DNA from: Escherichia coli
Lineage (GTDB): Bacteria > Pseudomonadota > Gammaproteobacteria > Enterobacterales > Enterobacteriaceae
Assembly: GCF_001677475.2 (NCBI RefSeq)
Contig: NZ_CP015229.1
Strand: one strand, 5' to 3'
DNA: 64,000 bases
Shown: piece after piece, positions 9,184-20,513 of the stretch
Layout: the number at the start of each line of letters is the position of its first letter
How positions within the stretch are numbered: position 1 is the first letter of the stretch
Position numbers and translations under genes: made by a program
The notes under the pieces: generated by a model
Told to the model about the DNA's origin: nothing
The model's database searches: none
What the model saw: only the letters and a program-made list of their open reading frames with translations

Positions 9184-11178
9184 ATGAGTTTTGCAGCTAC
9201 AGATTATCCATCCGGCGCACTAACTGGATCGGGTACACATAACGTGACTTTGAGCGGCAGCGCAGTTCCTGATGGAATGTTACTGTTTGCAAGCTTAGGG
9301 GGTACAGAAACAGTAGGGGAACTATTTACTTATTCTATTAAATTAAAAACTCCTGACATCCTGAACCTGGGCTATGTTTCCCCCGCAGCCAACCTACAGC
9401 TCAAACCGATGGTGGGCAAAGATCTGTGCGTCAATATCGAATTGGATGGCGGCGGAAAACGTTACATCAGCGGGCTGGTGACGGCGGCACGCGTGGCTGG
9501 TCATCAAGGACGTTCGGTGGTGTATGAACTGCGGCTCGAACCGTGGTTAAAAATACTGACCCACACTAGTGACTACAAAGCGTTTCAAAATAAAAACGTG
9601 GTGGAGATCCTGGATGAGGTACTGGATGAGTACCCCTGGCCAGTGGAAAAACGACTGGTGGAAAATTATCCGACTCGCGCCTGGCAGGTGCAGTACGGTG
9701 AAACAGATTTCGATTTTATTCAGCGCCTGATGCAGGAGTGGGGTATCTACTGGTGGTTTGAGCACAGCGAGAACAGTCACACGTTAGTGCTGGCTGATGC
9801 CATTAATGTCCACAAGGCATGCGCAGATTCGCCGCTGGTGTGTTATTACCAGAAAGGGCTGAAACTGGACAAGGAGTTTATCCATACCATCACAGCAAAT
9901 GAAAGTCTGCGCAGCGGACAGTGGGTGCTGAATGATTTCGACTTTATGAAGCCGCGTTCACTGCTGAAGAGCACCGTGGCTAATCCGCGTGAAACCGGCC
10001 TTGCTGAATATGAGCACTACGAATGGCCGGGAGATTACTTCACAAAGAGTGAAGGTGAAATGCTGACACGCATTCGCATGGAAGAACAGCGTAGCCCCGG
10101 TAGTCGGGTACAGGGCAGCGGCAATATTCGTACCCTGATAACGGGTTTTACCTTCACCCTGGAAAACTATCCGACAGCCGAAGTGAACCGGGAATATCTG
10201 CTGGTACAGACCACGCTATTTATACAGGACAATGCGCAACACAGCGGCCAGGAGCAGCATTTCTCTTACTCAACCAGCTTTGAACTGCATCCCACCAGCG
10301 AAGTTTACCGCCCACAACGAACCCTGTGCAAACCCCACACTAAAGGCCCGCAGAGCGCAATCGTCACCGGCCCGGCAGGGCAGGAAATCTGGACAGATAA
10401 ATATGGACGGGTGAAAGTTCAGTTTGGCTGGGATCGTTACGGTAAGAATGACGAAAATAGTTCCTGCTGGGTCCGTGTCAGTTATCCGTGGGCGGGTAAA
10501 GGATTCGGTGGCATTCAGATCCCGCGCATTGGTCAGGAAGTACTGGTGGATTTCAAAAACGGTGATCCGGATTTACCGATAATTGTTGGGCGTACCTACA
10601 ACCAGGACACCATGCCACCGTGGGGACTACCGGGCGCAGCGACGCAAAGCGGATTTTACAGTCACACTATCGGCGGCGGCCCAACCAATGCCAACGCACT
10701 ACGTTTTGAGGATAAACCTGGCGGTGAAGAGGTCTGGCTACATGCCGAAAAAGATCAGCGGATTGAAGTAAATAATAATGAAAGCCACTGGGTGGGCAAT
10801 AATCGCCTTAAAGTCATTGATAAAACAGAAACAGCGATAATTGGTGAGGAACGTTCTCTTACAGTTCAGATGGATGATACCTCCCTTGCCGGACAAAACA
10901 AAACGATTCAGGCCGTACAGAATTTACGCCTTGCTGCGGGAGATTCCATAATTCTTAGTTGTGGGAACACTATCCTGCAAATGACCAGTGACGGAATATT
11001 TAATATAACCTGTAAGAATTTTAATATTACTGCAACAGAAAATGGAAAGATAAATACACAATCAGGTCAGCTTGATTTAAATATGAATAACAGGGCGGCA
11101 GATATACTTCCGCCTGGAACATCGGAAAAAACAGCCCTTCAATTGGCGATAGACGTCGCCTTCATGACTAAAAAATAA
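9184..11178 (+). CDS. vgrG: Type VI secretion spike protein VgrG
   Basis: 664 aa; N-terminal gp27-like and gp5-like OB/beta-helix sequence (e.g. [60 protein letters not shown]). Confidence 0.9.
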
Positions 11179-11228: not shown

Positions 11229-11681
11229 ATGACGGAGTATTATCTCAATGAAACTGTTGTAAGTTTTTCCGGGAATATTATTCAGGACAGTACTATTAAT
11301 ATGCTTCGCCTCAGCGATCCCGACGCTGCACTCATTATCAGCCGGGGCCAGATGCAGGAAGGAGACGAATTAGCCTCCCAGATTGAACAGCAAATGAAAA
11401 AACTGGAGAAACAGGTAAAGGATCTTCACTACACGCCCGTTCAGGTAACACGGGTGGGGATTAATGACGGTGAAGAAGGACTGGAAATACAGAGCCAGTT
11501 TCTCCGGGGTAACGAGCAGGTGTACCAGTGTCAGGTGGCATTTGTATTGCCGGGTGAGCGGGTCATGATGGCCTTCACCTACGCCCGAACCACACCGCTG
11601 ACCCCGGCAGATATGACGCGCTGGGCTGAAATTAAAAAGAATCTGCGCTTCAGGATGCGGCAGGAAGCCGGGACGAATTAA
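11229..11681 (+). CDS. DUF1795/Eag-family chaperone for prePAAR effectors
   Basis: 150-aa ORF between vgrG and the prePAAR Rhs gene; size and position typical of Eag/EagR chaperones; sequence-level family call not verified. Confidence 0.6.
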   Translation: MTEYYLNETVVSFSGNIIQDSTINMLRLSDPDAALIISRGQMQEGDELASQIEQQMKKLEKQVKDLHYTPVQVTRVGINDGEEGLEIQSQFLRGNEQVYQCQVAFVLPGERVMMAFTYARTTPLTPADMTRWAEIKKNLRFRMRQEAGTN

Positions 11682-11699: not shown

Positions 11700-14600
11700 A
11701 TGGAAGAGGCATTCTGGGCGGCAAGGCAGGGTGATGCCCTGCTGCATACGTCGTTTATGGCAGATGTGCTGGGGGCAGTTGTAGAGGTTGCCGCCACAGC
11801 CCTGGTGGATGTTCTGGTTGTCGGAACCATGGCGGCGCTGGGCGGAGTTGAAGTGGCAACGCTGGGCTGCTCAACCATTTTAGCGATCGGTATAGCAACA
11901 GCGGTATTTATGTCGTATCAGGGCTGGAATGACCGAATCAGTAGGGAAAGTGAGCAACTGGCGAACTGGCTTTTCCCGCCTCAGATTGAAGGTTACATCC
12001 TCACCGGCTCTGGCGACACATGGATCAACAGCAAACCTGCCGCGCGGGCCGCGGCGACTGCGGCATCGCGGCAGGACATTGAGGCGCAGGAGGCGCAGGC
12101 GAAGGCGGAACAGGAAGAAGCGCAGCGTCAGGAGGATGCCAGAACGTTCCTGGATGTGGCCGGGGAATATCTGGAAATGGCGGGGGCCATAGCCCTGGCG
12201 GTTAACCCGGTGACAGGGCCTGTGCTGATGTCCCGGGCGCTGCACGACCAGCTCAGTACGGAAGAAGGGCGTTCTGAAATGGTGGATGGCGTGACACATT
12301 TTGTGTCGGAACTATGGCAGCCCACCGTGGCCAGTGCGGCCCCGGGCTCCACCCCGACCCCTGACGATAAAATCGACTGCCATAAACATCCCTCCTCACT
12401 GACGCAGTTTCTCGCACAAAAAAAAGCCGCCTTTCTGGATGACCCCCTGGGAACGGCCCTTAACCTGCTGAGTCCGGGCGGTATGCTGGAAACCGCCTTT
12501 CAGGGAGTGAATGCGGTTATTGGCAGCATCAGTAATCTGTTCAAAGGCGATGATGAACCGCCCGCAGCGGAATATATCGCGGAAGGCGCGCGGGATGTGC
12601 GTATCAACAGCCAGCCGGCGGCACGCAGCGGGGCACGCTGCACCTGCGAGGCCAGGGTGGTGAATGAGCCGGGGAACGGGGCGTTTGTGTCACCGGATGT
12701 CCGCATTGGCGGTCCGTTACTGGTGGTCAGGGATATCAGAAGCGGCAGGTCGCAGATAACCCTGGTGGCAACCGTGGCGCTGATGTTTCTTCGCCCGGGC
12801 AAAATGCTTTCTAAAATCGCCTGTTTTGCTGCCAGTGTCGGGATGGGGGTGATGACGCAGAAGGCCATCAGTGCCCTTCCGCATCCGGTCAATGCCGCCA
12901 CCGGAGCCAAATATCTGGCCGATGACGATGATTTTGACTTCAGTCTGCCGGGCCACTTTCCGCTGGACTGGCAGCGCGTGTACAGCAGTCGTGACGACCG
13001 CACGGAAGGGATGTTCGGGCAGGGCTGGAGTGTAATGTATGAAGTCAGCCTCGAGCGCACGCCGGGTACTGCTGACGAAAACTGTATGACCTTTGTGTCG
13101 GGCATGGGACGACGTCTGGATATGGAGGCCGTGCTGCCGGGGAGCGGGTTTTACAGCCCCGGCGAAGGACTGGCAGTACGGCGGGGTGAGCAGGGGCACT
13201 GGCTTATCAGCAGCGATGACGGGCAGTTTTTTCTGTTTGAGGCCGACCCGCGTCACCCGCAGCGCCAGCGGCTGAAAATGCTGGGCGACCGCAACAGCAA
13301 CTGTCTGAATCTGTACTACGACGAGCTGGGGCGCATCACGCAAATCAGCGGTGAACAGCAGCGTCCGTGCATCCGTCTGCATTATGAACTGGCGGCGCAT
13401 CCCCGGCGGGTGACACAGATTTATCAGCATTTCCCTGAGATGGCTCCTTTACTGCTGCGTCGTTACCGCTATGACGAGGCCGGCGACCTGAACGGCGTGT
13501 ACGACAGCACGGGGCACCTGCTGCGCGAGTTTGCTTACGACGAAAACCACTGCATGACCCTGCACCGCCAGCCGGGCGGCGAAGGGTATTATTACCAGTG
13601 GGGCTGGTATGAAGGCCCGGATGACGCAGCGTGGCGGGTGACGGGGCACCACACGGACAGCGGTGAACAGTACCGGCTGGCGTGGAGCCTGGCGGCACGC
13701 AGGCTGTGCGTGACGGACGGGCTGGGGCGCACGCGTTATCATCAGTGGGACGCGCAAAATCAGGTGACGGCGTACCAGGACGAAGCCGGGCAGGTGACGA
13801 CGTTCCGCTGGAGCGACGAAGAACGGCTGTTACTGGGAATGACCGATGCGCAGGGCGGCAAATGGCGCTATGTGTATGACCGGCAGGGGCATATCACGGA
13901 GACGCACGACCCGCTGGGGCGGGTGGCACAGACACAGTGGCACCCGGTGTGGCACCAGCCGGAAACGGAGGTGGACGCGGCGGGGAACAGCTGGTGCTGT
14001 GAGTACGATGAACGCGGCAATCTTCTTGCGGTGACCGACCCGCTGCAGCAGAACACCCGGTATCAGTATGACCGCCACGGCCAGGTGGTGCAGATAACGG
14101 ATGCGCGCGGGGGGAATAAATACCTTCAGTGGAACGAAGACGGGCAGCTCATGCGGCACACGGACTGTTCCGGCTCGCAGACGGCCTGGTTCTACGACGA
14201 ACGCACGCGGCTGATACGGATGACAGACGCGCAGAGCCACAGCACGCGCTACGGGTATGACGACAGCGGCCACCTGACGGAGGTGATACTGGCGGACGGC
14301 CGCACGGTGAATTACCAGTCGGACGCGGCGGGCAGGCTGGTGAAGTACACCAGCCCGATGGGGAGGATAACGCGCTGGCAGCGGGACGGGCAGGGCCGGG
14401 TGCGCAGCCGGACAGACGCGACGGGGCGCAGGACGGCGTTCGGGTACGATGCCTACGGGCGTCTGGTCACGCTCACGAACGAGAACGGAGAAAGCTACCG
14501 GTTCCGCCATGACGTGCTGGACCGTCTGGCGGAGCAGATAAATCCGGACGGCTGCCGCCAGACGTACCGCTACAACGCGCTGAACGCGGTCACGGAAGTG

Positions 14601-16415
14601 GTGTTCACCGGGGACCGGGGCGGTGAAATCCGCCACCGGCTGGCACGTGATGCGGCGGGCCGGCTCACGGCAAAGGAGACAGCCGATGGCCATACGGAAT
14701 ACGTCCATGATGCGGCAGACCAGCTACTGGAAATCCGCCGCCGACGGTCGGATGCCGGGGAAACAGACGCACCGGAGATTATCCGTTTCAGTTACGACAG
14801 ACTGGGGCGGATGCTGACCGAGGAGACGGCGCAGGGCGTCCTGACCCATCAGTACGATGAACTCAGCAACCGGACAGCCACCACCTTTCCGGATGGCAGA
14901 ACGCAGCGTCATCTGTACTACGGCAGCGGCCATCTCCAGCAGATAAATCTGGACCGGGAGGTCATCAGCGAGTTCACACGTGACGCCCTGCACCGGGAAG
15001 TGCTCAGAAGTCAGGGGCGACTGAGCACGCGGCAGCTTTATGACCCCGCCGGGCGGCTGAAGCGCAGGGAGACATACAGCGGGATGCGCGGGGTGGTACC
15101 GGAGACGTTCACGGACCGGCAGTACAGCTACAGCGGCGAGGATGAATTGCTGAAGACGCGGCACAGCCGGCGGGGGGAAACGGATTACGTCTACGACCCC
15201 ACGGGGCGCATCACGGCGTGCCGCTCGGAGGATGAGGGGTATCTGGCGAGCTGGCAGTACGACGCGGCGGGAAACCTGCTGGGGAGGCGCGCGGGGGAAA
15301 GGGCCACGGCAGAAAACAGCGTGGTGCCGTTCAACCGGCTGATGTCTTACCGTGGTGTGCACTACCGTTATGACGAATTTGGCCGGACGGTGGAAAAGGA
15401 GGGCCGGAGCGGCACGCAGAGTTACCGTTATGATGCGGAACACCGGATGGTGGAAGTGACGACAGCGCGGGGGACATACCGGTATGTGTACGATGCGCTG
15501 GGGAGGCGGACGGAAAAACAGCACATCAGCCCTGACGGTAAAGCGTACAACCGGACGACATTTTTATGGGACGGAATGCGGCTGGCGCAGGAGAGCAGGC
15601 CGGAGGGAATAAGCAGCCTGTATATCTACAGCGACCCGGGGAGTTATGAACCGCTGGCGCGGGTGGATAAGGCGGGCAAAGAGGGCCCGAACCGGATACT
15701 GTATTTTCACACGGATGTGAACGGTGCGCCGGAAGAGATGACGGACAGTGACGGGAAAATCGTGTGGGAGACGGGGTATCAGGTCTGGGGTAACACGATA
15801 CAGGAGAAGGACCACGGCGGGGTGGAGCAGAACCTGCGCTACCAGGGACAGTACCTCGACAGGGAAACGGGGCTGCACTACAATCTGCACAGGTACTATG
15901 ATCCGGATGTCGGGCGGTTCATGGTAACGGACCCGATAGGGCTGGCGGGGGGGCTGAATCTTTATACTTATGCGCCTAATCCAGTAAGCTGGATAGATCC
16001 CCTTGGTTTAAGTTGTTACTTTAATTCTAAGTCTAATCGCTGGCATGACAGGCAGACAGGTCGTTTTACAAAACGACCAACAGATCCTTCAGAATTAGTT
16101 CATAATGGCCGAATTGACAAGGCTGATATAGATGTTTGGGCTAGTCAAGGAGGGATTCCAAATACATGGGGGCATGATCCGTTAAAATTCCCCAGTGGTG
16201 GTTTTAAATATGATGCTGGTAATTATACTGTTCATGGTCATGGTGCTAATCCATCTGCGGCAGCTAAATTTCCTAATTCTAATGCGGCAAATGGGCCGAC
16301 AGCGAGCATGAAAAATACTTCAACAGGTGAAGTGTTTAGAACCGATGGAACTTGGGGGACATTCAAATCAGATGCCAATGGTGCTCATATCCCCCTTGAT
16401 GGCTCACCTTATTGA
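11700..16415 (+). CDS. Rhs-family T6SS effector with N-terminal prePAAR motif, transmembrane segments, PAAR region, YD-repeat shell and variable C-terminal toxin domain
   Basis: 1571 aa; AARQGDALLH matches the prePAAR AARxxDxxxH motif; hydrophobic stretches follow; two ...PAAR... segments; numerous YD repeats; DPIGL...DPLGLS demarcation then low-GC 134-aa tail. Confidence 0.9.
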   Translation: MEEAFWAARQGDALLHTSFMADVLGAVVEVAATALVDVLVVGTMAALGGVEVATLGCSTILAIGIATAVFMSYQGWNDRISRESEQLANWLFPPQIEGYILTGSGDTWINSKPAARAAATAASRQDIEAQEAQAKAEQEEAQRQEDARTFLDVAGEYLEMAGAIALAVNPVTGPVLMSRALHDQLSTEEGRSEMVDGVTHFVSELWQPTVASAAPGSTPTPDDKIDCHKHPSSLTQFLAQKKAAFLDDPLGTALNLLSPGGMLETAFQGVNAVIGSISNLFKGDDEPPAAEYIAEGARDVRINSQPAARSGARCTCEARVVNEPGNGAFVSPDVRIGGPLLVVRDIRSGRSQITLVATVALMFLRPGKMLSKIACFAASVGMGVMTQKAISALPHPVNAATGAKYLADDDDFDFSLPGHFPLDWQRVYSSRDDRTEGMFGQGWSVMYEVSLERTPGTADENCMTFVSGMGRRLDMEAVLPGSGFYSPGEGLAVRRGEQGHWLISSDDGQFFLFEADPRHPQRQRLKMLGDRNSNCLNLYYDELGRITQISGEQQRPCIRLHYELAAHPRRVTQIYQHFPEMAPLLLRRYRYDEAGDLNGVYDSTGHLLREFAYDENHCMTLHRQPGGEGYYYQWGWYEGPDDAAWRVTGHHTDSGEQYRLAWSLAARRLCVTDGLGRTRYHQWDAQNQVTAYQDEAGQVTTFRWSDEERLLLGMTDAQGGKWRYVYDRQGHITETHDPLGRVAQTQWHPVWHQPETEVDAAGNSWCCEYDERGNLLAVTDPLQQNTRYQYDRHGQVVQITDARGGNKYLQWNEDGQLMRHTDCSGSQTAWFYDERTRLIRMTDAQSHSTRYGYDDSGHLTEVILADGRTVNYQSDAAGRLVKYTSPMGRITRWQRDGQGRVRSRTDATGRRTAFGYDAYGRLVTLTNENGESYRFRHDVLDRLAEQINPDGCRQTYRYNALNAVTEVVFTGDRGGEIRHRLARDAAGRLTAKETADGHTEYVHDAADQLLEIRRRRSDAGETDAPEIIRFSYDRLGRMLTEETAQGVLTHQYDELSNRTATTFPDGRTQRHLYYGSGHLQQINLDREVISEFTRDALHREVLRSQGRLSTRQLYDPAGRLKRRETYSGMRGVVPETFTDRQYSYSGEDELLKTRHSRRGETDYVYDPTGRITACRSEDEGYLASWQYDAAGNLLGRRAGERATAENSVVPFNRLMSYRGVHYRYDEFGRTVEKEGRSGTQSYRYDAEHRMVEVTTARGTYRYVYDALGRRTEKQHISPDGKAYNRTTFLWDGMRLAQESRPEGISSLYIYSDPGSYEPLARVDKAGKEGPNRILYFHTDVNGAPEEMTDSDGKIVWETGYQVWGNTIQEKDHGGVEQNLRYQGQYLDRETGLHYNLHRYYDPDVGRFMVTDPIGLAGGLNLYTYAPNPVSWIDPLGLSCYFNSKSNRWHDRQTGRFTKRPTDPSELVHNGRIDKADIDVWASQGGIPNTWGHDPLKFPSGGFKYDAGNYTVHGHGANPSAAAKFPNSNAANGPTASMKNTSTGEVFRTDGTWGTFKSDANGAHIPLDGSPY

Positions 16416-16425
16416 GATTATTAAT

Positions 16426-16755
16426 ATGAATTTGCAAGAAATAAAAAATAAAGTCTTATCTCTTCCTACAATAATGAATTTAGCGGATGAGCTATTAATA
16501 ATTGACGAGTTGATGACTATTGATGTTAATGATTTGATTGAAAATCAAGATATCTTTAAATCTATTATAGATGCATTAGAATTATCACATATTGATTCTG
16601 GGTTTATGGAGTTAACAGAAGAAAATGAGAGTTCATTTATAAACTTCTACAAATGGCTTAATAAAACAAATAATAAATTTAACTTGGGAATAAATGCTAA
16701 CACTATAGATAGTTTTAGTTTGACTGTTGAAGATGTGAAAAAAATGATGTTATAG
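16426..16755 (+). CDS. Candidate Rhs immunity protein
   Basis: Track ORF 16327..16755 overlaps the rhs 3' end; first ATG after the rhs stop is 16426 (109 aa); AT-rich like the Rhs C-terminal domain; position immediately after toxin domain. Confidence 0.5.
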   Translation: MNLQEIKNKVLSLPTIMNLADELLIIDELMTIDVNDLIENQDIFKSIIDALELSHIDSGFMELTEENESSFINFYKWLNKTNNKFNLGINANTIDSFSLTVEDVKKMML

Positions 16756-16766
16756 ATAAAATATAA

Positions 16767-16800
16767 AGCCGGGAATATGATCTCCCGGCTTTTTTATTAT
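16767..16800. terminator. Bidirectional rho-independent terminator between immunity gene and symE-like gene
   Basis: AGCCGGGA-loop-TCCCGGCT hairpin followed by TTTTTTATTATT. Confidence 0.6.
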
Positions 16801-17130
16801 TCAACTCTCGTTCAGTACACTAAACATCCCGTTCCGCATCCCCTTAACCACCTGTTTAACCTGATAAAGCTCCTCCCGCAGTTCCTGCATCTCGTCACTG
16901 TCAGCGATGATGGTCAGGCACCCATCCGAGATCTTTACAGTCACGCCTGTCCCGGTATCAAATCCCGCCTCTTTCAGCCAGTCGCCCTTAAGGTGCAGGC
17001 TGGGGTGTTGTGAATAATACCGGGCTATACCGGTTGTGCGATCTTCGTGGCGGGCTCTGACATAGCCGACTTTATAGCGGCGCTGTGTTTTGGAAATGGT
17101 GACTTCTGGCGTAATATCGTGTTCAGCCAT
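16801..17130 (-). CDS. SymE-family toxin homolog (AbrB-fold, type I toxin family), copy 1
   Basis: 109 aa; LHLKGDWLKEAGFDTGTGVTVKISDGCLTI resembles the K-12 SymE core (LKGQWLEAAGFATGT...EGCIVLT) as I recall it; GAGGTAG RBS. Confidence 0.8.
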   Translation of the reverse strand: MAEHDITPEVTISKTQRRYKVGYVRARHEDRTTGIARYYSQHPSLHLKGDWLKEAGFDTGTGVTVKISDGCLTIIADSDEMQELREELYQVKQVVKGMRNGMFSVLNES

Positions 17131-17195
17131 GATTAACTACCTCGATTAGTTGCTTGTGGTGAGCGGCTGTTACAGGCGGCAACCTGTAGCAGTCG
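17124..17195 (+). ncRNA. Predicted cis-antisense sRNA overlapping the symE-like start (SymR-like antitoxin RNA candidate), copy 1
   Basis: Plus-strand sigma70-like promoter inside the symE 5' coding region (TTGGAA, 16-nt spacer, TAATAT at about 17090-17117) and a downstream hairpin (about 17166-17192) whose non-Watson-Crick positions are G-U wobbles only in the plus-strand transcript. Confidence 0.35.
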
Positions 17196-17202
17196 CGTTA
17201 AA

Positions 17203-17432
17203 TATCAACGCATTACCTTCATTACCTGCTTCATCTTCTCCTGCGTGATCGCCATATCCAGAATGCGGCAGATCACTTCCTGATCGTCTGCTTTAAGCTC
17301 ATCAACCTGCTTACACAGTTCCTTTAACCGCTTGTTTTTAATATCGAAAACAGGAGCGGTGGAACCTTCTTCACCCAACAGCAGGTGGTCAATACTGACT
17401 TCCAGAAGCTGGGCCAGCTTAATGATGTAATC
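17203..17432 (-). pseudogene. 3' remnant of an XRE-family HTH regulator gene truncated by the H-repeat element
   Basis: Minus-strand frame reads ...DYIIKLAQLLEVSIDHLLLGEEGSTAPVFDIKNKRLKELCKQVDELKADDQEVICRILDMAITQEKMKQVMKVMR-stop with no start codon; frame closes just inside the IS end. Confidence 0.45.
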
Positions 17433-18722
17433 AGGGAAAGATCACGTAATGCTGCTTTTTTGTACTAAACAATTCGCATTTTATGTTTAAAAATTGAGAT
17501 ATTCCTCATTACATAAAGCTGTTTTTTATTGCTTATACATGATCAAATACTCCTTACATAATTAAGGAGAACAAAATGGAACTTAAAAAATTGATGGAAC
17601 ATATTTCTATTATCCCCGATTACAGACAAGCCTGGAAAGTGGAACATAAATTATCGGATATTCTACTGTTGACTATTTGTGCCGTTATTTCGGGTGCAGA
17701 AGGCTGGGAAGATATAGAGGATTTTGGGGAAACACATCTCGATTTTTTGAAGCAATATGGTGATTTTGATAATGGTATTCCTGTTCACGATACCATTGCC
17801 AGAGTTGTATCCTGTATCAGTCCTGCAAAATTTCACGAGTGCTTTATTAACTGGATGCGTGACTGCCATTCTTCAGATGATAAAGACGTCATCGCAATTG
17901 ATGGAAAAACGCTCCGGCATTCTTATGACAAGAGTCGCCGCAGGGGAGCGATTCATGTCATTAGTGCGTTCTCAACAATGCACAGTCTGGTCATCGGACA
18001 GATCAGGACGGATGAGAAATCAAATGAAATTACAGCTATCCCTGAACTTCTTAACATGCTGGATATTAAAGGAAAAATCATCACAACTGATGCGATGGGT
18101 TGCCAGAAAGATATTGCAGAGAAGATACAAAAACAGGGAGGTGATTATTTATTCGCTGTAAAAGGAAACCAGGGGCGGCTAAATAAAGCCTTTGAGGAAA
18201 AATTCCCACTGAAAGAATTAAATAATCCAGAGCATGACAGTTACGCAATTAGTGAAAAGAGTCACGGCAGAGAAGAAATCCGTCTTCACATTGTTTGCGA
18301 TGTCCCTGATGAACTTATTGATTTCACGTTTGAATGGAAAGGACTGAAGAAATTATGCGTGGCAGTCTCCTTTCGGTCAATAATAGCAGAACAAAAGAAA
18401 GAGCCAGAAATGACGGTCAGATATTATATCAGTTCTGCTGATTTAACCGCAGAGAAGTTCGCCACAGCAATCCGAAACCACTGGCACGTGGAGAATAAGC
18501 TGCACTGGCGTCTGGACGTGGTAATGAATGAAGACGACTGCAAAATAAGAAGAGGAAACGCCGCAGAATTATTTTCAGGGATACGGCACATCGCTATTAA
18601 TATTTTAACGAATGATAAGGTATTCAAGGCAGGGTTAAGACGTAAGATGCGAAAAGCAGCCATGGACAGAAACTATCTCGCGTCAGTCCTTGCGGGGAGC
18701 GGGCTTTCGTAATCTTGCCCTG
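17432..18722 (+). mobile_element. ISAs1-family (H-repeat type) insertion sequence, intact copy
   Basis: About 1.29 kb; imperfect terminal inverted repeats CAGGGAAAGATCAC / (rc) CAGGGCAAGATTAC; single 378-aa transposase ORF. Confidence 0.75.
17576..18712 (+). CDS. ISAs1-family transposase (H-repeat-associated protein)
   Basis: 378 aa; sequence strongly resembles E. coli H-rpt proteins (YdcC/YhhI type) from memory. Confidence 0.85.
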
Positions 18723-18736
18723 ACCATCTGACGGAT

Positions 18737-18922
18737 GTGGCTGGTAATCCATCAAACATTGCTAATAGATTTTCAAAGGTCATTGATGGAAAAGATGTTC
18801 AGTTTGTTACTAAGGACTCTTTATTTGCCGGGCCGAGCGGTAAGTTTGCGCAATTTGAATCTACTTGGCAGGTTTTGGATAATGGTTCATTACGATTAAC
18901 AACAGTGATCCCGAAATTATGA
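18737..18922 (+). CDS. Possible orphan toxin C-terminal fragment downstream of the IS
   Basis: 61-codon GTG-initiated ORF whose frame opens exactly at the IS right end; AT-rich; ATGA overlap with next ORF. Confidence 0.3.
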   Translation: MAGNPSNIANRFSKVIDGKDVQFVTKDSLFAGPSGKFAQFESTWQVLDNGSLRLTTVIPKL

Positions 18923-19239
18923 TTAGAGAATTTGAAGAGAAAATGTCTGATTTGTTTGGTGTTGATGCAACATCATTCGATCCTGAATATGCGCAGTGGA
19001 CATATTTATTTAAGAAGGGTTTATTTTCACTTGAATTTGTTTATGCTCTGGATAAAACAATATCTACGGCTTTATATTATAATGAAAATTTATTGTCTTT
19101 TTATTTTGCCAATGGTCTGGAACACCTTAGCATAGAAGACAATAAAATTCATGGTGTTATTGTTAAAGGTAATACAACCAGAAAACTAGAGATAGATCCA
19201 TTAAATTTAATTATAAAATGGGAAGATTCATTAATATAA
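18919..19239 (+). CDS. Possible orphan immunity protein
   Basis: 106 aa, AT-rich, translationally coupled to the upstream fragment; same position relative to terminator/symE as the rhs immunity gene. Confidence 0.35.
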   Translation: MIREFEEKMSDLFGVDATSFDPEYAQWTYLFKKGLFSLEFVYALDKTISTALYYNENLLSFYFANGLEHLSIEDNKIHGVIVKGNTTRKLEIDPLNLIIKWEDSLI

Positions 19240-19280: not shown

Positions 19281-19320
19281 AGCCGGAGTGCTATTAAATC
19301 TTCCGGCTTTTTTATTATTT
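19281..19320. terminator. Bidirectional rho-independent terminator (copy 2)
   Basis: AGCCGGAG-loop-CTTCCGGCT hairpin followed by TTTTTTATTATTT. Confidence 0.55.
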
Positions 19321-19648
19321 AATTCTCGTTCAGCACACTAAACATCCCGTTCCGCATCCCCTTAACCACCTGTTTAACCTGATAAAGTTCCTTCCTCAGT
19401 TCCTGCACCTCGTCGCGCTCCGCAATCAGGATCAGGCACCCCTCCGAGATTTTCACAGTCACGCCCGTCCCGGTATCAAATCCCGCCTCAGCGAGCCAGT
19501 CGCCTTTAAGGTGCAGGCTGGGGTGCCGTGAATAATACGTGGTCATGCCTGTTTTACTGTTCTGATGGCGGGCGCTGACATAGCCCACCTGATACTGGCG
19601 CTGTGTTTTGGAAATGGCGACTTCTGGCGTAATATCGTGTTCAGCCAT
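19319..19648 (-). CDS. SymE-family toxin homolog, copy 2
   Basis: 109 aa, about 80 percent identical to copy 1 by eye; same RBS and flanks. Confidence 0.8.
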   Translation of the reverse strand: MAEHDITPEVAISKTQRQYQVGYVSARHQNSKTGMTTYYSRHPSLHLKGDWLAEAGFDTGTGVTVKISEGCLILIAERDEVQELRKELYQVKQVVKGMRNGMFSVLNEN

Positions 19649-19716
19649 GATTAACTACCTCTGTTAGTTGCTTGTGGTGAGCAGATTGTCAGTGTTGGTA
19701 GCACTGGCAATCTGCG
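19642..19716 (+). ncRNA. Predicted cis-antisense sRNA overlapping symE-like start, copy 2
   Basis: Same promoter-like hexamers (about 19608-19635) and a 13-bp-arm hairpin (about 19682-19714) with a single T-G position that pairs only in the plus-strand RNA. Confidence 0.35.
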
Positions 19717-19889
19717 TTAAAAATCAGTGTATTACTCTCTTTTCCATGGAAAGATCACGTAACGCTGCTTTTTTGTACTAAATAATTCGCATTTTATGTT
19801 TAAAAATTGAGATATTCCTCATTACCTAAAGCTGTTTTTTTATTGCTTATACATGATCAAATACTCCTTACATAATTAAGGAGAACAAA

Positions 19890-20372
19890 ATGGAACTTAA
19901 AAAATTGATGGAACATATTTCTATTATCCCCGATTACAGACAAGCCTGGAAAGTGGAACATAAATTATCGGATATTCTACTGTTGACTATTTGTGCCGTT
20001 ATTTCGGGTGCAGAAGGCTGGGAAGATATAGAGGATTTTGGGGAAACACATCTCGATTTTTTGAAGCAATGTGGTGATTTTGATAATGGTATTCCTGTTC
20101 ACGATACCATTGCCAGAGTTGTATCCTGTATCAGTCCTGAAAAATTTCATGAGTGCTTTATTAACTGGATGCTTGACTGCCATTCTTCAGATGATAAAGA
20201 CGTCATTGCAATTGATGGAAAAACGCTCCGGTACTCTTATGACAAGAGTCGTCGCAAGGGAGCGATTCACGTTATTAGTGTGTTCTCAATAATGCACAGT
20301 CAGATTCCTTGGAAGATCAAGACGAATAAAAAAACAATGAGATTACAGCTGTTTCTGAATTTCTTAACATAA
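19890..20372 (+). pseudogene. Degraded second ISAs1/H-repeat transposase gene (N-terminal 130 aa conserved, then divergent and truncated)
   Basis: 160-aa ORF identical in its first part to the intact copy, then diverging into ...[31 protein letters not shown]; element upstream sequence conserved from about 19745. Confidence 0.7.
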
Positions 20373-20513
20373 TGGGTATTAAAGGAAAAATAATTGCACC
20401 GATCCAATGTGATACCAGAAAGACATCGCTAAGAAGATAGCTATAGACAATTATTACCCTCCGTCAGCCCTTGTTAAGCGAGGAGAGACGTAATCTGTCC
20501 AGTCCCCTAATGC

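Follow-up and report, generated by a model that had tools for sequence, protein, structure and literature searches.

A truncated repressor-like gene upstream of a symE-like gene at an Escherichia coli Rhs locus, and the recombinase-primase module to which it probably belonged

At the distal end of an Escherichia coli Rhs locus linked to a type VI secretion system (T6SS; NCBI RefSeq assembly GCF_001677475.2, contig NZ_CP015229.1), two symE-like genes are each preceded by a fragment of a gene for a helix-turn-helix (HTH) protein, and each fragment ends at an H-rpt insertion sequence (IS). The whole 64,000-nt stretch analysed is referred to here as the window. The locus raises the question of which gene was lost upstream of these symE-like genes, and whether it formed a regulator/toxin pair with them, as a first-pass annotation of the sequence had proposed. 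The fragment upstream of the first copy (symE1) is probably the remnant of an RstR/cI-like repressor gene from a module in which genes for a XerC-like recombinase and a primase are divergent from the HTH and SymE genes, the module having been lost via ISEc1/H-rpt and deletion.

Read on the minus strand, the region upstream of symE1 translates as IT-stop-SFPDYIIKLAQLLEVSIDHLLLGEEGSTAPVFDIKNKRLKELCKQVDELKADDQEVICRILDMAITQEKMKQVMKVMR-stop, the last stop being a TGA at 17205-17207, and the remnant frame itself, from 17432 down to this TGA, reads DYIIKLAQLLEVSIDHLLLGEEGSTAPVFDIKNKRLKELCKQVDELKADDQEVICRILDMAITQEKMKQVMKVMR followed by the stop. In a tblastn search (window positions 17432-17208) the remnant was 100% identical in amino acid sequence to residues 58-132 of the 132-aa protein WP_001401944.1 (E = 1e-45), and it differs from the intact allele at 4 positions in 228 nt, all synonymous. 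It had been described as the C-terminal 70 residues of an XRE-type HTH protein without an N-terminus; the assignment to the 3' part of an XRE gene stands, and the number of surviving residues is 75. Three codons of the frame (SFP) come from the IS end and a TGA stop lies next to them, in agreement with the earlier remark that the frame closes a few codons inside the H-repeat, while the exact position of the junction is ambiguous by 2-3 nt (TCA). Pfam HTH_3 spans residues 20-74 of the intact protein (E = 7e-12), of which the remnant retains residues 58-74 only. The retained stretch (KLAQLLEVSIDHLLLG / KLAQLLEVSIDHLL) had been taken for a typical XRE third helix, but it is the tail of HTH_3, helices 4-5, and the recognition helix IQPRMVGRWEQG falls in the deleted part. 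The remnant by itself gave no Pfam family match. Given this, and the short part of the domain that is left, the window is judged to hold a pseudogene of an HTH_3 family member and not a member.

The first-pass annotation had suggested that other genomes be searched for an intact HTH gene upstream of SymE, and such genes were found. E. coli PEC395 carries the intact 132-aa WP_001401944.1 upstream of a SymE gene, in the same position as the window remnant. In a survey of 5,426 complete E. coli genomes, this first HTH allele was complete in 44, usually in two copies, and a second allele, 28-30% identical to the first, was complete in 10 more. Relatives of the HTH protein numbered 124 at E <= 1e-5, including proteins of Salmonella, Pectobacterium, Xenorhabdus, Photorhabdus, Erwinia, Yersinia, Dickeya and Pantoea, and intact HTH-symE pairs also occur in Pectobacterium, Photorhabdus, Dickeya, Pantoea, Xenorhabdus, Budvicia, Lonsdalea and others. 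A species-level survey with one genome per species recovered 24 loci, in 21 of which SymE lies downstream of HTH on the same strand, 75-100 nt away. As judged by a simple consensus match, the sole strong promoter of the intact E. coli locus is TTGACC-17-TATAAT (11/12), upstream of HTH, and no terminator-like site was found between HTH and symE there; hence, a two-gene HTH-symE transcript is plausible. In the window, the same kind of scan of the symE1 strand gave nothing resembling a promoter upstream of the gene.

These pairs are part of a larger arrangement. In all well-assembled cases, HTH is divergent from a gene for a 900-1000-aa DnaG-type primase (Zn-ribbon and Toprim), which is followed by a gene for a XerC-like tyrosine recombinase matching NCBIfam NF002331 at 533 bits. 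This order of XerC and primase in one direction and HTH in the other was seen in six genera. Of the species-level loci, 21 have 500 nt or more of sequence upstream of HTH, and 13 of these carry a divergent primase gene there; three primase-less loci have N-terminally truncated HTH genes, as in the window. The full set of XerC, primase, HTH and SymE is placed between successive toxin-immunity cassettes in Rhs loci (E. coli, Photorhabdus) and between two-partner secretion (TPS)/contact-dependent inhibition (CDI) cassettes (Photorhabdus, Dickeya, Pantoea, Chimaeribacter), and the same organisation is found beside toxin loci in Pectobacterium. In E. coli SCU-113, a 5,884-bp unit that runs from just past symE to a short Rhs-core end fragment is present in tandem at 97.8% identity, the repeats differing only in the toxin tip and the immunity gene. 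More distant trios of HTH and divergent primase-XerC genes, in which HTH shares 30% identity along its whole length and the primase 56-59%, lack SymE; they adjoin TpsA/CdiA cassettes on a megaplasmid of Pseudomonas and a plasmid of Enterobacter. The ancestral two-gene HTH-SymE unit proposed by the first-pass annotation is thus real as a pair, and its shared transcript plausible, but it is embedded in this larger primase-XerC module.

Several observations were made on variants of the arrangement. On P. aeruginosa pPA1609-475 and Enterobacter pJBIWA003_1 (L024 and L023), tandem units of HTH and divergent primase-XerC-RelE/ParE genes stand beside TpsA2/adhesin cassettes, and in the Pseudomonas units the position of SymE is taken by a VbhA-family antitoxin gene. 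In one Pectobacterium locus (L003, 10473-11809) it is SymE and not HTH that is truncated, cut after 46 codons by an inserted 399-aa open reading frame (ORF) on the opposite strand. In Pantoea dispersa CDI arrays (L016-L018), several orphan CdiA-CT (C-terminal toxin)/immunity cassettes are each followed by a short convergent SymE (61-79 aa) without HTH, and HTH and a degraded primase are kept in the last unit only; these stubs may therefore mark former positions of the module.

The nature of the intact HTH protein was judged from its relatives, its neighbours and its alleles. Its best family match is to the NCBIfam RstR family NF041951, at 78.9 bits (cut-off 80), with residues 15-126 aligned to profile positions 2-107 of 108; it also matches PHROG transcriptional repressor families, and its PDB relatives are repressors of mobile elements (ICEBs1 ImmR, P22 C2 and a transposon-related DNA-binding protein). 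The 98-bp spacer between HTH and primase holds AGGTCA/TGACCT repeats that overlap the HTH promoter and are conserved across five genera, from E. coli to Dickeya. The arrangement of mobile-element repressors is therefore present, i.e. divergent replication/integration genes and a candidate operator in a shared control region. Within a species, HTH alleles are 25-34% identical, compared with 51-96% for the partner SymE (79-96% in four of five pairs) and 73-94% for the primase. This reassortment extends to the window, since its SymE1 is 94% identical to SymE of strain E04, whose paired HTH is the other allele. The presence of divergent HTH alleles beside well-conserved SymE argues against a co-evolving antitoxin-toxin pair. 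Taken together, these features suggest that the intact HTH protein would act as a repressor by binding to the divergent control region, keeping transcription of its own HTH-symE unit in check and turning off the operon of the primase and recombinase genes.

In metagenome contigs L012-L014, a 60%-identical HTH gene overlaps the start of an Eco57I-type methylase gene beside a BsuBI/PstI endonuclease gene, the position of a restriction-modification controller protein.

The features of the window that bear on the loss of the module, with those that surround them, are as follows:

9184-11178: vgrG of the T6SS-linked Rhs locus
11229-11681: DcrB-like gene of the T6SS-linked Rhs locus
11700-16415, plus strand: main Rhs toxin gene, 1571 aa
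about 16437-16755: candidate immunity ORF, 3' of the main Rhs toxin gene
16765-16792: hairpin resembling a bidirectional terminator, situated between symE1 and the Rhs immunity gene
16801-17130, minus strand: symE-like copy 1 (symE1), intact 109-aa ORF, Pfam SymE_toxin match
17125-17199, plus strand: candidate SymR-like antisense RNA, copy 1, with a weak Rfam symR match and a two-hairpin fold
17205-17432, minus strand: 3' remnant (pseudogene) of the XRE/RstR-like repressor gene, residues 58-132 of WP_001401944.1 and the stop
17431-18722, plus strand: ISEc1/H-rpt (ISAs1 family) copy 1, with an intact transposase ORF at 17576-18712 (378 aa)
18723-18922, plus strand: C-terminal fragment of an orphan toxin domain whose 5' part is cut off by the IS right end, with a 61-aa ORF at 18737-18922
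18919-19239, plus strand: candidate immunity gene for the truncated orphan toxin, 106 aa, its function suggested by position and by overlap with the toxin fragment
19319-19648, minus strand: symE-like copy 2 (symE2), intact 109-aa ORF
19643-19718, plus strand: candidate SymR-like antisense RNA, copy 2, with a weak Rfam symR match and the fold
19723-19746, minus strand: second HTH remnant, from a different HTH allele, last 7 codons and the stop
19745-20439, plus strand: degenerate H-rpt copy 2, limited to the first 695 bp, at 92.6% identity to copy 1, the reading frame being disrupted

The locus ends near pptA, and the flanking genes (those for a GGDEF protein and a sulfatase, and pptA) are 99.7-99.8% identical to their counterparts in E. 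coli chromosomes. The toxin CT/immunity pair at 18723-19239 is unlike the pair at the same locus in strain 2009C-3133.

H-rpt copy 1 is about 1.29 kb long and is bounded by imperfect terminal inverted repeats, CAGGGAAAGATCACG and CAGGGCAAGATTACG. Its size (~1.3 kb), these repeats and the single transposase ORF between 17431 and 18722 are those of the ISAs1 family member ISEc1, and homologous H-rpt copies are annotated in RefSeq as ISAs1-like ISEc1 transposase. No target-site duplication flanks copy 1. Its right end abuts the middle of the orphan toxin domain, of which a 61-aa tail is left before the presumed immunity gene. What is missing at this point amounts to at least 5.5 kb and comprises the 5' part of HTH, the control region, the primase and XerC genes and the first part of the toxin cassette beyond them. 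A tblastn search of the 64-kb window for the rest of HTH, the primase and XerC found none of them elsewhere, which ruled out a simple insertion with the other half of HTH nearby. Since there is no target duplication and these parts are gone, the cause at copy 1 is an IS-adjacent deletion or an inter-IS recombination and not a plain insertion. The earlier statement that an IS insertion decapitated the HTH gene therefore holds in that an H-rpt element cut the gene, but an adjacent deletion was involved. The two copy-1 junctions specific to the window are both absent from the set of 5,426 complete E. coli genomes; hence, the event is private to this lineage.

At copy 2, the minus strand at 19723-19746 reads MEKRVIH-stop. 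The stop codon and the bases downstream of it (TGATTTTTAACGC) are homologous to their copy-1 counterparts (TGATATTTAACGC), and this remnant of a few codons, already recognised in the first-pass annotation, is therefore real. Among complete E. coli genomes, at least 73 share the copy-2 junction of HTH and H-rpt, which is thus old and widespread. As had been stated, both symE genes are without their HTH regulator, the window retaining only the 75-residue and 7-codon stubs.

Elsewhere H-rpt is joined at other points, 97 nt into HTH, 57 nt into the other allele, or 8 nt from the symE start codon. SymE-like genes are found in 489 places in ~200 genomes, and an intact HTH gene in only ~54. Given the variation in the joins and the excess of SymE-like genes over intact HTH genes, ISAs1-linked loss of the module is recurrent. 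In E. coli SCU-113, a terminal SymE gene beside ybgA was considered as a natural HTH-less SymE but was dropped, as a 28-bp scar of the H-rpt right end lies 35 bp upstream of it (L002, 26575-26615). The scar joins where the symE leader CTTGTGGTGAGCGGCT resembles the IS end CTTGCGGGGAGCGGGCT, which suggests a microhomology-mediated deletion.

Both symE ORFs outlived the loss. SymE1 matches Pfam SymE_toxin (PF08845) over residues 16-75 (E = 8.7e-22), and the window SymE proteins score 52-58 bits (SymE1 52) against the NCBIfam SymE equivalog model for the K-12 protein, which has a cut-off of 132. They are accordingly classed, by these scores, as SymE family members and not as orthologues of K-12 SymE. 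The Rfam symR model (RF01809) matches antisense to symE at 38.5 bits (E = 7e-5) for copy 1 and 48.3 bits (E = 3e-7) for copy 2, in each case below the gathering score of 61. The copy-1 SymR-like RNA overlaps the symE1 start codon and occupies most of the 74-bp spacer (17131-17204) between symE1 and the HTH remnant. When folded, this spacer gave -36.2 kcal/mol for the antisense strand and -23.7 kcal/mol for the symE-sense strand. The same antisense fold was obtained for all 13 spacers taken from six genera, with a first hairpin covering the ribosome-binding site and start codon of symE and a second in the form of a long, GC-rich stem; in all 13 units the antisense strand is more stable than the sense strand, by 6-22 kcal/mol, owing to G-U pairs. 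The type I antisense layer proposed earlier is thus borne out by the weak Rfam matches and the conserved fold, by analogy and not as membership of the family.

A palindrome noted earlier (about 17164-17197), for which a test of binding by the HTH protein had been suggested, corresponds to the 3' hairpin of the SymR-like RNA candidate. Its stem differs between genera that share an invariant HTH recognition helix, and the antisense strand is the more stable; the palindrome is therefore read as an RNA hairpin and not as a likely HTH operator, and the conserved repeats are in the HTH-primase spacer instead. A tyrosine-recombinase core site was also considered and the RNA hairpin is preferred, a role as a recombination site being possible. 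In the HTH-symE spacers, those of the window (17131-17204 and 19649-19722) included, the sequence of the long stem changes completely between alleles and genera yet stays paired, and its 6-nt loop is found in both orientations (CGGCAA / TTGCCG).

Inside both symE-like genes, on the antisense strand (plus strand, 16931-17059 and 19449-19577), the Rfam model isrA, which describes a Salmonella island-encoded, Hfq-binding small RNA, matches at 115 and 104 bits, above its gathering score of 51. Given these matches, the isrA family may correspond to the complement of a SymE-like coding sequence. Partial Ssr1 matches, far below threshold, cover the same regions.

The course of events that fits these data best can be outlined. 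In an intact unit, the 132-aa HTH protein would be made from the TTGACC-17-TATAAT promoter in the 98-bp divergent control region, and its transcript would most likely run on through the 74-bp spacer into the symE-like gene, while an opposite promoter would drive the genes for the DnaG-type primase and the XerC-like tyrosine recombinase. By binding the AGGTCA/TGACCT repeats, the HTH protein would repress both its own HTH-symE transcript and the primase-recombinase operon. It may also define an 'immunity type', since whole alleles of it have been exchanged while the genes on either side stayed conserved. The SymR-like antisense RNA from the spacer would further hold down SymE output. In the window, ISEc1/H-rpt, combined with a deletion beside it or a recombination between IS copies, would have eliminated HTH helices 1-3 along with the promoter and operator, the genes for the primase and XerC, and the beginning of the toxin cassette that followed. 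The presumed result is a fixed array of two intact symE-like genes without a recognisable promoter, each with its antisense partner, and two repressor stubs. Both symE genes of the window are most likely silent or barely expressed.

Other explanations were weighed against that of a mobile-element repressor. That the open frame arose by chance, or is the 3' end of an unrelated gene, has practically no probability, because it is 100% identical over 75 residues to a conserved protein family, and the 124 homologues of that family complete its exclusion. It is very improbable that the remnant still functions. A shortened protein consisting of the C-terminal domain, e.g. one of 57 aa from a TTG at 17378, would then act on SymE or on other repressors encoded in the genome. 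That domain is complete and free of non-synonymous changes, and the 57-aa ORF exists in frame, but the minus strand has no promoter-like site upstream, the first ATG comes no earlier than residue 110, and three codons into the IS the frame is shut. Moreover, stubs of 97, 57 and 24 nt in other genomes indicate that no particular stub length is kept.

More weight was given to the proposal, made in the first-pass annotation, of a type II-like regulator/toxin pair, in which a dedicated antitoxin or regulator would neutralise or specifically repress SymE on top of SymR antisense control, so that its loss would leave SymE without a protein partner. HTH and SymE are adjacent and co-directional in most species-level loci, the intact locus has a single strong promoter and no terminator between the two genes, and the protein shows a weak similarity to XRE antitoxins (HipB/Y4mF 36 bits, MqsA 26, PezA 24), all far under the cut-offs. 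Several points count for this proposal or otherwise weigh against a repressor of the primase-recombinase operon. Within the HTH subfamily the link to SymE (21/24) is tighter than that to the primase (13/21), a lone HTH-SymE pair stands at the end of the Chimaeribacter CDI locus, the C-terminal 50-residue domain of HTH is conserved, and the score with the RstR model lies just under the curated cut-off; a weak or non-sigma-70 symE promoter inside the HTH 3' region would also be missed by the promoter scan. In view of the first two of these, a SymE-directed role of HTH retains some probability. Nevertheless, a binding partner should co-vary with its target, whereas HTH diverges far more than SymE, and SymE1 carries the remnant of one HTH allele while the 94%-identical SymE of E04 is paired with the other. 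The two genes do not overlap but are separated by a 74-100 nt spacer with an antisense RNA. Both symE ORFs are intact despite the loss of HTH, and no fewer than 73 genomes have kept the copy-2 arrangement. Homologous trios of HTH and primase-XerC occur without SymE, a 60%-identical HTH precedes a restriction-modification methylase, and the conserved repeats are on the primase side. A dedicated antitoxin is thus considered unlikely, and HTH is assigned instead to the primase-XerC module as its probable repressor.

Whether that module is itself mobile is a further matter. A prophage or satellite origin is unsupported, because the primase has no phage relatives past its DnaG-like N-terminus. The module might tentatively be viewed as an autonomous integrative and replicative element that brings toxin CT/immunity cassettes into Rhs/CdiA loci, with HTH as its heteroimmunity-type repressor and SymE/SymR either as an addiction module or as the arm of homology on the downstream side through which cassettes are exchanged; on this view, the window would represent an end state, in which ISEc1 destroyed the element and the array was frozen. 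The tandem 5.9-kb units, the plasmid-borne trios, the replacement of repressor alleles and a circular record from Lonsdalea populi favour such an element. The last of these, the 11,289-bp record NZ_CP072857.1 of strain N-5-1 (L022), deposited as a circular plasmid, consists only of two units, each with XerC-primase divergent from HTH-SymE and with toxin-immunity genes, and a ParE/DinJ pair. It represents either a replicating form of the module after excision or a repeat circularised in error. If the module is mobile, it offers a concrete and testable route for the acquisition of new toxin-immunity cassettes, and the H-rpt ends of E. coli Rhs loci would be explained by an IS that has repeatedly replaced it.

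The remnant itself is an ordinary IS-generated pseudogene, and its value is as a pointer to the module. SymE-like genes beside CDI or Hcp cassettes have been remarked on but left unexplained (PMC11278526, PMC3942780), and those beside Rhs, CDI and Hcp cassettes can now be assigned to a conserved module of four genes, the other three of which encode the repressor, the primase and the XerC-like recombinase. XerC/D recombinases beside poly-immunity loci were noted by Zhang et al. 2012 (PMC3482391). According to a 2026 preprint (doi 10.64898/2026.07.13.738213), Xer-dependent systems stand beside Rhs poly-immunity arrays in Xenorhabdus and Photorhabdus, for which Martinkus et al. (Curr Biol 2026) is cited, and the association of Xer with such arrays thus appears to be already published. 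No description of the HTH-SymE unit, or of the primase as a part of it, was found in the literature searched, Martinkus et al. 2026 lying outside that search. The case also calls for caution, in that a small HTH gene upstream of a toxin gene need not encode an antitoxin.

Compared with known systems, the ancestral unit is a SymE/SymR-like system headed by a probable mobile-element repressor. With the XRE antitoxins HigA, MqsA, HipB and PezA, the HTH protein shares small size, an N-terminal HTH_3 domain and a gene upstream of one annotated as a toxin, but it differs in model matches far under the cut-offs, the lack of co-variation with the toxin and the long spacer with its antisense RNA. With SymE/SymR of E. 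coli K-12, the unit shares the SymE_toxin domain and an antisense element that overlaps the start codon and weakly matches symR. K-12 symE has its own LexA-controlled promoter and no HTH gene upstream; here, the equivalog and symR scores are under the cut-offs, the only good promoter is upstream of the XRE gene, and the symE-like genes are convergent to toxin-immunity cassettes. In heteroimmune regions such as rstR, the repressor gene is characteristically exchanged as a whole while the genes on either side are conserved. Like RstR of CTXphi, the HTH protein is a small putative XRE repressor encoded divergently from replication/integration genes, with divergent alleles between conserved neighbours, but its neighbours are a DnaG-type primase and a XerC-like recombinase in place of rstA/rstB, phage structural genes are absent and the setting is within Rhs/CDI loci. 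Recombinase-associated poly-immunity arrays likewise consist of toxin CT and immunity genes adjoining XerC/D-type recombinases. Finally, the 1.29-kb ISAs1-family element with its 378-aa transposase at the distal Rhs end is the H-rpt (ISEc1) known from E. coli Rhs elements, to which are added here the repressor-primase-recombinase module that it displaced and truncation points that vary by locus and strain.

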